From a virus (lineage: Duplodnaviria > Caudoviricetes): DNA of 64,000 bases. The stretch covers positions 141,057 to 205,056 of the IMG/VR virus record IMGVR_UViG_3300037424_000564; one strand, 5' to 3'. The notes beneath the pieces are model-generated. The model was not told the origin of the DNA. It saw nothing but the letters and a program-made list of their open reading frames with translations, and did not search any database. Positions 44,226-62,820 of the stretch are shown in pieces; positions within the stretch are counted from its first letter, which is position 1; the number at the start of each line of letters is the position of its first letter. Made by a program: the position numbers and the translations under genes.

Positions 44226-44282
44226 TAATAGACAAATAATTAATATCATATTATGATTAGATCAACGAATAGGAGATACCAC

Positions 44283-45491
44283 ATGTTTATAGCAAATCAC
44301 CCCAAATTATATATAGTCGGAGGTTGTGTCAGAGACATGATCATGGGTCGAGAGGCTTCTGATGTGGATTATTGTTTCTCCGGTTCTGAATCAGAATTGA
44401 TGAAATTGTTTCCTAAAGCATATCAGGTTGGTATTTCTTTTCCTGTGTTCATGGTAAATGGATGTGAAGTTGCATTGACTCGTACTGAAGAATCTAATGG
44501 AGATTCCTATGGTGACTTTATTGTTACTAATGTTGGGGTTTCTATTGAAGAAGATTTGAATCGTCGTGACTTCACAATGAATCAAATAGCAATTAACACA
44601 ATGACTCAAGAAGTGATTGATCCTACTGGCGGCAAGAATGATATTACTGGTATGATCATTCGTACAACTAATACTAAAGCATTTGAAGAAGATCCTGTTC
44701 GTATTTTGAGAGCAATTCGATTTGCAACTACCATGGGATTTGCAATTGAAACTGAAACATTCCAAATGATGAAAGAAAATGTTCATCGTTTGGAATTCAT
44801 CACCAAAGAACGTATTGTGTTGGAATTGGAAAAAATGTGGAAAGGTGCTAATGTGCCTTCTGTATTTTTTACAATTTTGAGCGAGATTGGTGGATTGAAA
44901 TTCATTTCTCCTGTGTTTGAAGCAATGGAAAATGTTCCTGCTGGACCTTTCAAATACCATGGGGATGATACAGTATTTGATCACACAATGAATGTCATCA
45001 ATCGAATCAAACAACATAACGGAACGTTCAGTGCATTCATTGCTGGATTGACTCATGATTTTGGAAAGACTGTGACTCCTGCACATGTATTGCCGGGACA
45101 TCATGGCCATGAGTTTAATGGGTTGGAATTGGCTAAAGAATTTATAACAAATAATCGTTTTGATTCTTACACAAATGAGTTGATCTTGGTTGCTATGAGA
45201 AATCATATGCTGGTTCGTGTTTTCAATGAAATGAGAACTATCACCAAAGTCAAATTTGTTAAATCTATTCCTAAGCATATGGTGGAAGATTTCAAAGTGA
45301 TTGTCTTTTCTGATCATGAAAGGTCACAGGAAACTAAAAATTTTATTAGTTTCGTTTTTGCAACTGTCAATTCTTTTAGAATGACCAAAGAAGATATCGA
45401 ACGTGTTAAAAATACAAAAGATAAAAAAGAAGTAGCTATCAGAATCATCACTAAACATTTGGCTTCTAAAATTAAGGAGATTGAAGAATGA
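44283..45491 (+). CDS. cca: tRNA nucleotidyltransferase (CCA-adding) with HD domain
   Basis: YIVGGCVRD..MG...DVDY, ALTRTE, EDLNRRDFTMN, EDPVRILRAIRF, ERIVLE, H...DHT...THDFGK. Confidence 0.92.
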   Translation: MFIANHPKLYIVGGCVRDMIMGREASDVDYCFSGSESELMKLFPKAYQVGISFPVFMVNGCEVALTRTEESNGDSYGDFIVTNVGVSIEEDLNRRDFTMNQIAINTMTQEVIDPTGGKNDITGMIIRTTNTKAFEEDPVRILRAIRFATTMGFAIETETFQMMKENVHRLEFITKERIVLELEKMWKGANVPSVFFTILSEIGGLKFISPVFEAMENVPAGPFKYHGDDTVFDHTMNVINRIKQHNGTFSAFIAGLTHDFGKTVTPAHVLPGHHGHEFNGLELAKEFITNNRFDSYTNELILVAMRNHMLVRVFNEMRTITKVKFVKSIPKHMVEDFKVIVFSDHERSQETKNFISFVFATVNSFRMTKEDIERVKNTKDKKEVAIRIITKHLASKIKEIEE

Positions 45492-46647: not shown

Positions 46648-46869
46648 ATGACGATATCTGAATTTTTCGACCCAAGTAAACAATCACATATTACAGCATT
46701 TGAATGTTTAATGAATTCTGGTACATGGCCTGTAAATTTTTTACCTAATGATATTTGTTTTTCACCAACTTGGCCATATGACGTTACTCAAAAAATGGTA
46801 ATCTTTTTAATTAAAGAAAATAAAACATTGAAAGAAAAAGTAAGAATACTTAAGAAATATTATTACTAG
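46648..46869 (+). CDS. Hypothetical protein (TAG stop)
   Basis: 73 aa ORF. Confidence 0.55.
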   Translation: MTISEFFDPSKQSHITAFECLMNSGTWPVNFLPNDICFSPTWPYDVTQKMVIFLIKENKTLKEKVRILKKYYY

Positions 46870-47470
46870 CAAACGTGGCAGGTAAATCAAAAACTTCAAT
46901 TTTATCATTTGGGGCGACTACTTGTTTATCAATAATCATTCTCATATTAAAAAGAACAATCATAACTGTATCACTCCATCCAAACGGATGATCTACTGAC
47001 AAATAATCAATTCCTTTTAACACTAGAAAGTTCCTAAACGCATTTGTTTGGGAACTTTTTATTGCTTCATAGTTCACCATCATATTAATGAAATTACTAG
47101 CTGGAACTTCACCTTTGTCCTTGTACCTAGAAAGAGCCTGAAGTATTTCTTTTCTCTTATTTTTTATAATATAATCATCGACAAATTCCAAGATATCAGC
47201 TAAAGGAATGGATGCATCATTTGCATCCATTCCTTTTTTGATTGTTACCATATAAAGCTTGCGACTACCTTTAGAATATTTCTGTGCTGTTTGATAATGA
47301 GTTATTAAATAAAGGCCGGGGCCATACTCGAATCTACCTTTTTTCTGAATTTTGGTTTCATCATAAGCATCATCTAAATTTCCACCATGCCAAAGACTCA
47401 TTGTATTTTGAGTAGTAGATGGAGATATAATCTTTTTAGCTTCTGTTATAAATTGTTTGAATGGTTTCAT
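46850..47470 (-). CDS. ADP-ribosyltransferase (PARP-like)-fold protein with capsid-targeting-like N-terminus
   Basis: LWHGG...EYGPGLYLITHYQTAQKYS; starts MKPFKQFITE. Confidence 0.6.
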   Translation of the reverse strand: MKPFKQFITEAKKIISPSTTQNTMSLWHGGNLDDAYDETKIQKKGRFEYGPGLYLITHYQTAQKYSKGSRKLYMVTIKKGMDANDASIPLADILEFVDDYIIKNKRKEILQALSRYKDKGEVPASNFINMMVNYEAIKSSQTNAFRNFLVLKGIDYLSVDHPFGWSDTVMIVLFNMRMIIDKQVVAPNDKIEVFDLPATFASNNIS

Positions 47471-58942: not shown

Positions 58943-59260
58943 TTATTTGTACATTTTAAATTTTTTGAAGAACTTTCTATCCTCTCCATAAATTGGTTCT
59001 GTAGCAATTGCAGTAAAACCAGTTTCGTGATCAGGCTCGTAAAACATGTGAGACTTAATTCCTTGTAAATCCAATTTCAACTTTATATCAATCAATTTTG
59101 CCTGATCTTTGACCTCAAACAAAATAAAGTGACATGTCTTTTCAGGATGCTCAATTTGTTTCGTTATTTCTTGAGTTGAGTGAGCCGCCTGTATTATTTG
59201 ATAATGTAAAGACATGTCTTTTCTAATGAAGCAATAAGTATAAGGAGTCTAATTACGCAT
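58943..59260 (-). CDS. Peptidyl-tRNA hydrolase (Pth2)-like protein with in-frame amber codon at position 4
   Basis: AAGGAG-7 nt-ATG CGT AAT TAG ACT CCT TAT ACT TAT TGC TTC ATT AGA AAA GAC ATG...; read-through gives YTYCFIRKDM...QIIQAAHS...FYEPD...TAIATEP, which restores the family's first beta-strand. Confidence 0.72.
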
Positions 59261-59591
59261 TGTCAGTCTCCTTTAGAATAGCTCTAATTGCAATCAAATG
59301 ATCTTCTGTTAAGATACCACCAAACGGTGGTAGAATCCATTCTGGACGTGCATTGCAAACATAATTCATAGCTTTTCTATATGCTTCATTTCCAGTTTTA
59401 CCTTGACAAATTAATTTTCTCTTGGATTGCTTTTCTGGTGATGCAAAACATTGTTTAGGATCTTTGTCTCGTAAAATTGCGTAAAGAGCAAAGTCGTATC
59501 CAGAGAAATTGTAGTTGTCTTTGCATGATTGTTTCCATGCTTTGATCATGTTTAGATATTGTTCTTTAGATTCAAAAATTTCCATTTTCAT
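59253..59591 (-). CDS. Hypothetical protein, first full gene of the amber-leader operon
   Basis: 112 aa; stop overlaps the Pth2-like ATG (ATGCGTAA). Confidence 0.75.
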   Translation of the reverse strand: MKMEIFESKEQYLNMIKAWKQSCKDNYNFSGYDFALYAILRDKDPKQCFASPEKQSKRKLICQGKTGNEAYRKAMNYVCNARPEWILPPFGGILTEDHLIAIRAILKETDNA

Positions 59592-59661: not shown

Positions 59662-59697
59662 TTACGGTGGTCTATTTGAATGTGTCTATCGTTTCAT
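59662..59697 (-). CDS. Leader peptide M-K-R-[amber]-T-H-S-N-R-P-P
   Basis: GGAGG-5 nt-ATG AAA CGA TAG ACA CAT TCA AAT AGA CCA CCG TAA. Confidence 0.65.
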
Positions 59698-59747: not shown

Positions 59748-59776
59748 ATCATATCATTAGATTGGTTATCTGTCAA
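59748..59776 (-). promoter_or_regulatory. Early sigma70-type promoter of the amber-leader operon
   Basis: TTGACA-17-TATGAT. Confidence 0.8.
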
Positions 59777-60709: not shown

Positions 60710-61261
60710 CTATTTACTATCTGTAATGGTAAATGCCATATCAGTATTATTAATAGAAGTTATTTTTGAATGATAACCATCCTTAAGTTTTTGTGTTTCA
60801 ATTTCAATAATTTTAATTTCATCGATATAATTAAATTTCGCAACCTTGATAGGAGGAACCCTAAGATTTTCGGGAAGATGTGTTTGAACACTTTTACATA
60901 AGTCAAAATAAACATCAGTAATATCGTGTAATCCGTCACTTGACCAACATGAATTATGATTACTTGTATTTTCAAATTGATCTAGTGGAATGGAGTTCAG
61001 ACCCCATGCTGTACTGACAGCAGACCAAACAGATACATGTCCTGTAAAAATCATGTGGATAAATTTAACATCAGAAATTGAGTCATAACTACTAAGAGTA
61101 TTACCATCAAGATAACCATAATAACTCGCGCTCATTTTTAATTTAATATAAAGAGATTTCTTCTTTTTATTGTCATAACTATTCATCGTGTTGATTGCAG
61201 GAAGTAGTGTTCTGACCATATTCGCTACAGTAATATTAGCATCCAAAGTAGCAACACCCAT
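60710..61261 (-). CDS. Hypothetical protein
   Basis: 183 aa ORF with AAGGAG site. Confidence 0.65.
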   Translation of the reverse strand: MGVATLDANITVANMVRTLLPAINTMNSYDNKKKKSLYIKLKMSASYYGYLDGNTLSSYDSISDVKFIHMIFTGHVSVWSAVSTAWGLNSIPLDQFENTSNHNSCWSSDGLHDITDVYFDLCKSVQTHLPENLRVPPIKVAKFNYIDEIKIIEIETQKLKDGYHSKITSINNTDMAFTITDSK

Positions 61262-61605: not shown

Positions 61606-61631
61606 AATTTATCTCCATTGTGATATGTTTG

Positions 61632-61703
61632 TGGGCAATGCGGGAATTGAACCCGCGATAGAGAATTTAGAGTTCCCTGCTTTAACCACTTAGCTAATTG
61701 CCC
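61632..61703 (-). tRNA. Amber suppressor tRNA, anticodon CUA (3' CCA not encoded)
   Basis: GGGCAAT TA GCT-AAGTGGTTAA-AGC A GGGAA-CT CTA AA-TTCTC TATC GCGGG-TTCAATT-CCCGC ATTGCCC A: complete 72-nt cloverleaf, followed by CAA. Confidence 0.92.
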
Positions 61704-61711
61704 ATTTCATT

Positions 61712-62134
61712 TCATTTCTCCTTTTTAAGTTTGATATTCACACAACCCATATGACATTCAATAACTTTTATTGATTTATCAGGATAGAATTGACATTGAT
61801 TACTATCACTACGTACATCAGACTCTTTGGTTGTTTTGAAGACACAAAACTTCAATCTCCTACTTTTAACCCGTAAAATTTGTTTAAGAAGATCTTCTGG
61901 AAACCAACTCTCGAATTGTTCAATAGAATTGAATCCAAAATATTGATTATCATTTCTAGTAAGATCAAATTTAGGATGAATATCATCCGAATCACCTTTA
62001 TAGTCCATATAGTATCTATATAATCTTAAGCATTCTATTACAGCATTAGCTTTTTTTCTTGCTCGTTCATAAAAACTAATACCATTATTATAAATACCAA
62101 ATCCATTGCCATATTGAAATCTATAAACAAACAT
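61712..62134 (-). CDS. Hypothetical protein
   Basis: 140 aa; FGFNSIEQFESWF...QCQF; co-transcribed with the tRNA. Confidence 0.65.
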   Translation of the reverse strand: MFVYRFQYGNGFGIYNNGISFYERARKKANAVIECLRLYRYYMDYKGDSDDIHPKFDLTRNDNQYFGFNSIEQFESWFPEDLLKQILRVKSRRLKFCVFKTTKESDVRSDSNQCQFYPDKSIKVIECHMGCVNIKLKKEK

Positions 62135-62163: not shown

Positions 62164-62192
62164 AATATATTATTATTTTATTTATTTGTCAA
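62164..62192 (-). promoter_or_regulatory. Early sigma70-type promoter upstream of the tRNA transcript
   Basis: TTGACA-17-TATATT. Confidence 0.7.
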
Positions 62193-62371
62193 TTATTAAT
62201 TAGTCGCATTGCTTTGATTATTGTATTTCTAGTTTCATCTGATAATAGATACCATGCGTTGTCTAATCTAACTTCAACCAATGCATTATGACAAATACTA
62301 GCCATATCATTTAATGCATTGATTGAAGCTGGAATTTTACATGGTTCTGGTGTGAATTCTATATCTCTCAT
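62189..62371 (-). CDS. Hypothetical protein
   Basis: 60 aa; overlaps the yqeY stop. Confidence 0.55.
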   Translation of the reverse strand: MRDIEFTPEPCKIPASINALNDMASICHNALVEVRLDNAWYLLSDETRNTIIKAMRLINN

Positions 62372-62820
62372 GATAGTGCCTGTTTAACTAAAACAGAAGC
62401 CATTTTCCCATCATATAGACCATCATATTCTTTTTTGAGAATTGACATCACTCTACCCATATCAGAAGGAGAAGTAGCATTGTTTGATTTTGTGATAAAT
62501 CCAATAACACCAATCAATTCAACTTCTCCCATTTGTTTAGGAAGAAATTCATATAAAATATTTCTCTCAATATCTAATTGAATTGGGTAAGTATCACATA
62601 GTTCAATTGTTTGATCAATCCCCTTGATAAATGCTTTAATTTTGTTAACACAATCTGTGTCAGTAATAAGACGTTGGCCATCATTCTTGGCAACCATTTC
62701 AATCTCCCCAATAAGAGTACCAAGAAGATTTGCTTTTATTTTGAATGATTTATTTCCAATTGCTTCTTTACGAGCAGCTACCCATTCCTTTTTAATCGTA
62801 TGAATTAGTTCTGGTTTCAT
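62368..62820 (-). CDS. yqeY: GatB/YqeY-domain protein
   Basis: IKKEWVAARK...LLGTLIGEIE...ITD...FLPKQM...DMGRVMSILK..Y.GLYDGKMAS.LVKQAL. Confidence 0.85.
   Translation of the reverse strand: MKPELIHTIKKEWVAARKEAIGNKSFKIKANLLGTLIGEIEMVAKNDGQRLITDTDCVNKIKAFIKGIDQTIELCDTYPIQLDIERNILYEFLPKQMGEVELIGVIGFITKSNNATSPSDMGRVMSILKKEYDGLYDGKMASVLVKQALS

Follow-up and report, generated by a model that had tools for sequence, protein, structure and literature searches.

A phage tRNA that reads UAG and the conserved early amber codons that it may open

Why would a phage that keeps TAG as a stop codon carry a tRNA that reads UAG? This question is raised by a stretch of 64,000 nucleotides of a tailed phage (Duplodnaviria; Caudoviricetes), positions 141,057 to 205,056 of IMG/VR record IMGVR_UViG_3300037424_000564 and henceforth called the window, in which a tRNA gene with the anticodon CUA, tRNA(CUA), is found. 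The original prediction, made from the letters of the window, recognized this gene as an amber suppressor tRNA and regarded it as merely cheap to carry, without any particular job. Our analysis confirms the observation and partly supports the interpretation. In-frame TAG codons stand at codon 4 of a short leader open reading frame (ORF) and at codon 4 of a gene whose modelled product has a peptidyl-tRNA hydrolase 2 (Pth2) fold. Both belong to an operon on the minus strand, about 2 kb downstream of tRNA(CUA), and both recur together with tRNA(CUA) in distant phages. These conserved targets, and not the low carrying cost of the tRNA, are the main point, and they argue against a tRNA with nothing particular to do. 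We consider it likely that tRNA(CUA) is a functional elongator tRNA that decodes UAG and opens a few programmed amber codons lying 3-4 codons past translation starts, so that tRNA and amber codons would together form a translational gate.

The only tRNA that ARAGORN reports for the window lies on the minus strand at 61631-61703 and has the anticodon CTA, and the Rfam model RF00005 matches 61703-61632 with 69.5 bits (E = 4e-13; model positions 1-71 of 71; gathering score 29). All structural details that had been listed for the cloverleaf were found in the sequence: an acceptor stem with G1-C72, G2-C71 and G3-C70 followed by A73, a D stem of 3 bp (G10-C25, C11-G24, U12-A23) with A13/A22 unpaired, a 7-nt anticodon loop CU-CUA-AA, a 4-nt variable loop (UAUC) and a normal T-loop, GTTCAAT. 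The anticodon arm is that of an amber suppressor, as CUA stands in a loop of 7 nt that has U33 and a purine as base 37. The gene starts 8 nt past the stop of ORF 61712-62134 and is therefore probably transcribed from the putative promoter at 62164-62192, upstream of that ORF. It does not encode CCA (its 3' trailer reads CAAACA), so that the tRNA needs a CCA-adding enzyme of phage or host origin.

This tRNA is one of a family. The window gene was aligned with 20 further phage tRNA(CUA) genes from independent assemblies; these share the CUA anticodon and its loop, which excludes the earlier concern that C34 might be a sequencing error. Compensatory changes occur in 18 of the 20 stem pairs. C32, C34, U35, A36, A37 and A38 are invariant in all 21 genes and U33 in 20 of them, while the acceptor stems differ almost completely, the discriminator is A73 in 16 genes and G73 in five, and the 31-39 pair is A-U, U-A or C/A. 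Because the CUA loop is invariant while acceptor stems and discriminator vary, we conclude that selection would act on the reading of UAG and not on one particular inserted residue, the identity of which is probably irrelevant. The near-universal U33 is replaced by C33 in phage ME3 (L068 8148-8221, minus strand), giving the loop CCCUAAA, and phage CM1 carries a tRNA with the anticodon UUA (L054 707-781) besides its tRNA(CUA).

The Pth2-like gene begins at 59260 with AAGGAG-N7-ATG CGT AAT TAG ACT CCT TAT ACT TAT TGC TTC ATT AGA AAA GAC ATG. This reading of 105 codons is in frame with a 90-amino-acid ORF; standard gene calling starts at 59215 and thus retrieves the tail only. A protein search with the 105-codon reading returned 31 relatives, in which homologs of 101-108 amino acids share a conserved N-terminus, [T/I]PYTYCFIRKD, that aligns with the 11 codons between TAG and Met16. 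F11-I12-R13-K14-D15, located in the same interval, are invariant among the homologs, and most of them have Leu at the position of Met16. In the AlphaFold2 model (pLDDT 92.8), beta-strand 1 comprises residues 7-13, that is, it follows the TAG. Because a start at Met16 would lose this core strand and the RKD motif, and because Met16 is mostly Leu in the homologs, read-through of TAG is predicted to be required for a functional product. The residue opposite TAG in homologs with a sense codon is Q, L, E or absent and does not decide which amino acid is inserted. The assignment of the modelled protein to the Pth2 fold is based on Foldseek, whose top 13 PDB matches are all Pth2 or Bit1 (E 2e-5 to 7e-4; TMq 0.60-0.78); by this likeness, the protein may have peptidyl-tRNA hydrolase activity.

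Further upstream, the operon opens with the leader, which reads GGAGG-N5-ATG AAA CGA TAG ACA CAT TCA AAT AGA CCA CCG TAA. Its relatives differ in sequence and agree in design. The contigs with the short Pth2-like homologs P0019, P0023 and P0015 have the leaders ML-amber-INLSRPP-stop or ML-amber-IRLSRPP-stop. At three other loci (L007, L009 and L015) the Pth2-like gene has a sense codon, yet tRNA(CUA) lies directly upstream of a TAG leader, the leaders being ML-amber-INNRPP-stop, MTWT-amber-VYNRPP-stop and MM-amber-MPKPP-stop; boxes similar to the TTGACA of the window promoter precede the leader in L007 and L009. A last locus, L080, combines tRNA(CUA) with the leader MQH-amber-VRKIRSP-stop and the 112-amino-acid gene that follows the leader in the window. 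Seven leader variants end in PP-stop and the eighth, that of L080, in SP-stop, and every leader relative has a tRNA(CUA) nearby. Since the peptide past the TAG is conserved and ends in PP-stop, the comparison implies that it is translated.

Immediately at the leader stop codon a predicted hairpin begins, in which CUUUUAUAGG pairs with CCUAUAAAGG, the latter including the Shine-Dalgarno (SD) sequence of the 112-amino-acid gene. In the relatives the hairpin arms, as read by eye, have different sequences and keep their complementarity. Short ORF, conserved PP-stop motif and directly adjoining SD-sequestering hairpin together have the layout of a stalling attenuator. The 112-amino-acid protein is conserved in the clade and confidently helical in the AlphaFold2 model (pLDDT 83.6), with no match in Pfam, PHROG or Atlas and no PDB fold match. 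A search for related loci with this partner alone found nothing.

The early TAG of the Pth2-like gene is likewise found in other phages. The short homologs P0019, P0023 and P0015 have TAG at codon 3 or 4 behind a strong SD, with tRNA(CUA) 0.6-3.7 kb upstream on each contig, and distant IMG/VR relatives (34-44% identity) begin with M-X-TAG. A tblastn search against GenBank phages gave 33 records, mostly jumbo phages (>200 kb) of Proteobacteria, and the gated starts read there are listed in Table 1 together with the features of the window. All cultured and GenBank phages listed with a gated start carry tRNA(CUA), as established by whole-record searches and verified with ARAGORN. In ME3 it lies 0.44 kb upstream of the gated gene and is one of only five tRNAs in a 235-kb genome; in RaK2, on the other hand, the gene starts in the ordinary way and a pattern search found no tRNA(CUA). 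Overall, nearly all genomes with early-TAG sites carry tRNA(CUA), in about 20 records.

Table 1. Features of the window and gated starts in other phages (coordinates refer to the window unless an accession is given; the amber codon is written out).
Feature	Coordinates	Strand	Basis or sequence
tRNA gene, anticodon CUA, reads UAG	61632..61703	minus	ARAGORN; Rfam RF00005; class I cloverleaf, A73, loop CUCUAAA
Putative sigma-70-like promoter, TTGACA-17-TATATT	62164..62192	minus	Consensus scan 11/12, pattern match only; upstream of ORF 61712-62134
Putative sigma-70-like promoter, TTGACA-17-TATGAT with TG extension	59748..59776	minus	Consensus scan 11/12; precedes the amber-gated operon
Leader ORF, MKR-amber-THSNRPP-stop	59662..59697	minus	Sequence; TAG is codon 4, 59686-59688
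Predicted hairpin starting at the leader stop codon	59597..59665	minus	RNA fold -20.4 kcal/mol, z -2.4; 3' arm holds the SD AAAGGA of the next gene
112-amino-acid helical protein, first gene of the gated operon	59253..59591	minus	ORF list; its stop and the start of the following gene overlap (ATGCGTAA)
Pth2-fold (peptidyl-tRNA-hydrolase-like) gene, 105 codons	58943..59260	minus	TAG is codon 4, 59249-59251, behind AAGGAG
CCA-adding enzyme with HD domain	44253..45491	plus	Pfam PolyA_pol 6e-23, PolyA_pol_RNAbd, HD
GAP32, CBB			Gated start MAQ-amber-NEKTW
Kaldavass			Gated start MAH-amber-NEKTW
BF			Gated start MTH-amber
Arash			Gated start ML-amber-NKHW
ME3			Gated start MT-amber-IHENKK
RsoM2USA			Gated start ML-amber-ISDKTYSYCF
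595-kb phage LR756511			Gated start MTH-amber-VETPY
XacN1, HD-Pth2 fusion	AP018399.1 243735-243756 (L020)		Gated start MK-amber-T..
Xoo-sp13, HD-Pth2 fusion (L078)			Gated start MKK-amber-N..
CM1, HD-Pth2 fusion (L079)			Gated start MK-amber-T..; no Met after TAG

In the Xanthomonas and Stenotrophomonas jumbo phages the Pth2-like domain forms the C-terminus of a protein of about 280 amino acids, the N-terminal half of which has an HD-like motif, FHDIGKP; the fusion genes of XacN1, Xoo-sp13 and CM1 have their start, M-K(-K)-TAG-A, ahead of the annotated one. The early TAG causes GenBank annotation either to truncate the Pth2-like gene past its conserved N-terminus, as in GAP32_397, CBB_406, Arash gp84c/gp85c and XacN1 ORF364, or to omit it, as in RsoM2USA and BF, where it is uncalled. 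Standard gene callers thus systematically truncate or miss the family.

The sites also resemble each other in position and context. From metagenomic and cultured phages, 25 sites were tabulated, counting leaders and Pth2-like genes together; Xoo-sp13 and CM1 were read afterwards, which gives 27. TAG is codon 3 at 14 of the tabulated sites, codon 4 at 10 and codon 5 at one, and is followed by A at 20, G at three, C at two and T at none, figures that come from phylogenetically related sites, whose context statistics overstate independence, and for which no P value is given. Xoo-sp13 (codon 4) and CM1 (codon 3) again have A after TAG, so that all 27 sites fall within codons 3-5. Within the 205-kb genome, a strong SD followed by ATG, two codons and TAG-AC occurs at the leader and the Pth2-like site only. 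Ordinary TAG terminators of this phage are mostly in other contexts, with back-up stops nearby: the base after the 24 terminator TAGs of the genome is T in eight cases, G in eight, A in seven and C in one, and after the five of the window it is T, T, G, T and T. In E. coli, amber suppression is reportedly most efficient when A follows on the 3' side (Bossi 1983; Miller and Albertini 1983). Very short nascent chains, moreover, are poor substrates of release factors. The UAG-A context and the early position would thus favour tRNA(CUA) over release at the gated sites.

Which amino acid tRNA(CUA) carries cannot be read from the sequence, as had been stated from the outset. When the tRNA was compared pairwise with 98 phage tRNAs, no isotype came out consistently as the nearest, and blastn against E. 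coli genomes gave weak matches to tRNA-Ile or tRNA-Asn, or nothing; these similarity searches rule out any firm assignment. Tyr, Leu and Ser are unlikely for a tRNA without a long variable arm, in agreement with the original prediction that a bacterial tRNA-Tyr is not concerned. An E. coli-type Gln or Trp identity is argued against by G1-C72 together with A73. The name tRNA-Pyl is only what ARAGORN gives to any CUA anticodon, and G18-G19, the 5-bp anticodon stem, the 4-nt variable loop and the GTTCAAT T-loop contradict pylT. The latter has a short D-loop without G18-G19, a 6-bp anticodon stem, a 3-nt variable loop and no T-psi-C sequence. By E. coli rules, A73, U35 and A31-U39 lean toward Lys, and a passage of one report has C31-G39 favouring Gln over Lys (PMC1483225). 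Lys or Gln would therefore be the likeliest residue for the tRNA of the window, with a slight lean to Lys.

No synthetase of the Lys/Asp/Asn (PF00152) or Glu/Gln (PF00749) type was matched in the complete phage genome; since the phage does not encode these types, charging would fall to host enzymes. A YqeY/GatB-tail-like gene (62368-62820, minus strand; Pfam 5e-13; PHROG 'tRNA amidotransferase') lies 0.7 kb upstream of tRNA(CUA). Such a gene precedes the gated gene by 0.9-2 kb in XacN1, Xoo-sp13 and RsoM2USA, lies elsewhere in the genome in GAP32, BF, ME3 and CM1, and is missing in Arash, the 595-kb phage and RaK2; it may encode a tRNA-binding helper or be a hint of Gln identity. The closest tRNA among GenBank phages is an ochre-type suppressor with the anticodon UUA from Lak-B1 (MK250020.1; L001 296-368; 80.7% over 56 nt by blastn), which may point to a common lineage of phage suppressor tRNAs.

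Taken together, the layout suggests the following order of events. Host enzymes would probably process and charge tRNA(CUA), and the phage CCA-adding enzyme could add the CCA end. The gated operon would be transcribed from the sigma-70-like promoter at 59776-59748. Without charged tRNA(CUA), a ribosome would stop at leader codon 4; with the tRNA, it would proceed to Arg-Pro-Pro-UAA. A ribosome paused at Pro-Pro-stop would open the hairpin and thereby free the SD of the 112-amino-acid gene. The second gate would be the UAG at codon 4 of the translationally coupled Pth2-like gene, no functional enzyme being made without read-through. Output would be set at a very early codon in a UAG-A context, where charged tRNA(CUA) and release factor 1 (RF1) compete, and, with two gates in series, the output of the Pth2-like gene should rise steeply with the ratio of suppressor activity to RF1. 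Gating might serve as a fail-safe against leaky synthesis of a harmful enzyme, as a timer that awaits tRNA maturation or, by analogy with prfB, as a sensor of termination or of peptidyl-tRNA.

Besides the relatedness of the tabulated sites, several findings weigh against such a gate. Genome-wide, an SD followed by ATG, one to four codons and a stop shows no excess of TAG (16 cases, versus 23 for TAA and 15 for TGA) and, because there is none, the case rests on conservation and not on within-genome statistics. A complete IMG/VR phage of 101,761 bp with terminal repeats (G002) has the gate MT-amber-INEKYVF behind a weak SD (L016 5001), and ARAGORN finds 31 tRNAs in it, all with anticodons other than CUA; either its tRNA is non-canonical and was missed, or this gated copy is decaying. 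The gated gene is also present in a 527-kb genome (G001) with no tRNA(CUA) by pattern search. A 4.8-kb fragment (L013) is too short to judge the presence of the tRNA. The Pth2-like protein of the window lacks a Pfam PF01981 match at E <= 0.01; some homologs carry precomputed or weak PF01981 matches, and a profile search against the PDB gave only Ta0108, at E = 1. Finally, an efficient suppressor would extend some of the proteins encoded by the 24 ORFs that end in TAG, seven of which have A as the next base.

The alternative that fares best is that tRNA(CUA) suppresses amber codons in general and without specific targets, as an initial stage of TAG recoding that is tolerated through rare TAG stops and short extensions. 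The genome itself is in keeping with such tolerance. It is a single contig of 205,056 bp from a sediment metagenome, with overlapping ends and a CheckV completeness of 100%, the final 64 kb of which form the window, and no close DNA relative was found among GenBank phages. At 30.5% GC, TAG is its rarest stop (24 of 272 ORFs), and read-through would add a median of 6.5 codons. Four of the five TAG-ending genes originally named for the window (9881, 24644, 56725 and 58166) do end so; the fifth, 46869, falls away, the ORF at 46850-47470 ending in TAA, and one at 60710 had been missed. Extensions are short, as had been claimed, with the range being 2-24 codons in place of about 2-21 residues. The longest belongs to the missed ORF, which encodes 183 amino acids (60710-61261, minus strand), lies between tRNA(CUA) and the gated operon and ends in TAG-T.

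A general suppressor would also find company. Borges et al. (bioRxiv 10.1101/2021.08.26.457843) see a possible precursor of recoding in a phage that has a suppressor tRNA and uses the standard code, and the UUA tRNA that is nearest among GenBank phages comes from the TAG-recoded Lak megaphages. Recoding as such is rejected for the phage studied here, for which the original statement that it uses the standard code holds. Under table 11 its greedy coding density is 0.884, a value that reading TAG as sense does not raise appreciably (0.886), nowhere in the genome are two long ORFs connected through a TAG, and the gp23 and gp20 ORFs, encoding the Gp23 capsid protein and Gp20 portal of this T4-like phage, are intact under table 11; in addition, no release-factor gene (PF00472) was matched in the complete genome. 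What a general suppressor leaves unexplained is why TAG should be found at codons 3-5 of the same protein family and leader at protein identities down to 25-45%, and why those early-TAG phages should carry tRNA(CUA). We therefore regard an untargeted suppressor as improbable, while noting that it and a gate are compatible over evolutionary time, as a gate could seed recoding.

Less probable again is a role of tRNA(CUA) directed mainly at the host or at competitors, either as a decoy or replacement for anticodon nucleases or as a corrupter of host UAG termination, with the early TAGs being incidental. Phage tRNAs with altered anticodon loops can evade tRNA-targeting defences. The phage also has tRNA maintenance genes, such as those for the CCA-adding/HD enzyme and the nearby YqeY protein, and 25 tRNAs besides tRNA(CUA). 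Of these 26 tRNAs (ARAGORN), 25 are at 51-71 kb of the genome, 24 of them clustered at 51-61 kb, and tRNA(CUA) is isolated at 202.7 kb. A decoy, however, would keep a sense anticodon, whereas CUA stays invariant in all 21 genes while the rest of the molecule drifts, and conserved in-frame TAGs ahead of essential residues are not predicted by such a role. Very unlikely, finally, is an early TAG that is never decoded, with ATG-NNN-TAG being a minigene or upstream ORF, the Pth2-like protein being made by re-initiation and tRNA(CUA) being unrelated or a pseudogene: a strong SD, ATG, one to three codons and a stop do form a minigene layout, like that of the lambda bar minigenes, ATT, a rare start codon, directly follows TAG at 7 of the 25 sites, and G001 and G002 have the TAG with no tRNA(CUA) detected, but most post-TAG codons (ACT, AAT, AAC, GTT, CTT, ACA) are not start codons, the leader frame past TAG encodes a conserved peptide ending in PP-stop, chance alone would have to account for the pairing with tRNA(CUA) in about 20 records, and the full covariation of the tRNA is not that of a pseudogene.

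A translational gate built from tRNA and amber codons thus remains the reading that we favour. For the orphan amber suppressor tRNAs that have been a puzzle in several standard-code jumbo phages, it would supply a target that is concrete and conserved, along with a testable function: the private codon would be a lock on a peptidyl-tRNA-hydrolase-like gene, and the phage tRNA its key. The gate would plausibly also stand midway on the path from the standard code to TAG-recoded phages and, as several carriers have been cultured on tractable hosts, the idea can be tested directly. We put forward more tentatively, as a possibility that we ourselves rather doubt, that the gate is a self-contained translational sensor common to many standard-code phages, in which the early amber codon would measure suppressor activity (synthesis, end-processing and charging of the tRNA) against RF1, two gates in series would give a threshold response, and a tRNA-end hydrolase as output would act back on the pool of peptidyl- or aminoacyl-tRNA. 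If true, this would be a class of translational regulation not described before, with a private codon at its base, and a likely evolutionary seed of whole-genome TAG recoding (code 15). In full-text searches of the literature, neither a Pth2 gene gated by a suppressor tRNA nor an amber leader was found described.

Among known systems, the closest are XacN1, RsoM2USA and GAP32, the latter with a 'Sup-tRNA' annotation, which likewise have tRNA(CUA) in a genome with TAG as stop and in which the Pth2-like gene is also present. The authors of the XacN1 report searched only downstream of annotated amber stops and identified no target gene (PMC5852040), and the RsoM2USA paper names no target for its amber suppressor tRNA (PMC8504454). 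In contrast, the target found here lies upstream of annotated starts of these very genomes, where TAG is codon 3 or 4 of a Pth2-like or HD-Pth2 gene. The TAG-recoded Lak and crAss-like phages also use a phage tRNA(CUA) to override the host stop, which was proposed to time the translation of phage genes (bioRxiv 10.1101/2021.08.26.457843; PMC9523058). Such code 15 phages have many in-frame TAGs in late, structural and lysis genes, their coding density rises when TAG is read as sense, and some encode release factor 2 (RF2), whereas in the phage of the window density is unchanged, structural genes are without TAG, a release-factor gene is lacking and only two codon-4 sites would be gated. With respect to the protein, the likeness to archaeal and eukaryotic Pth2 (MJ0051, 2zv3; Sso, 1xty; human Bit1, 1q7s) is one of predicted fold (TM 0.7-0.78), with R-x-D-L and Q-x-x-H-A motifs that align with the gated protein; the latter differs in having only 13-21% identity and in being slightly shorter (105 amino acids).

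As a regulatory device, the proposed gate can be compared with prfB, the gene for RF2, which has an in-frame UGA at codon 26 and likewise places an early stop in a translation-factor gene, where termination competes with alternative decoding. In prfB a +1 frameshift provides the escape and what is sensed is the gene's own product, whereas the gate of the window would need a trans-acting tRNA and its product is hydrolase-like. The leader resembles those of ermCL, cat/cmlA, SecM and TnaC in its short ORF, its C-terminal proline stalling motif at the stop and its SD-hiding hairpin. Those leaders sense a drug, a metabolite or secretion, whereas the amber codon in the middle of the window leader would sense suppressor-tRNA activity. 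Finally, a synthetic feed-forward 'leak dampener' based on a suppressor tRNA (PMC7969014) similarly combines an N-terminal amber codon with a co-supplied tRNA and yields no product without that tRNA. The dampener was engineered in E. coli, whereas the design seen in the window is apparently natural and conserved across phage lineages.

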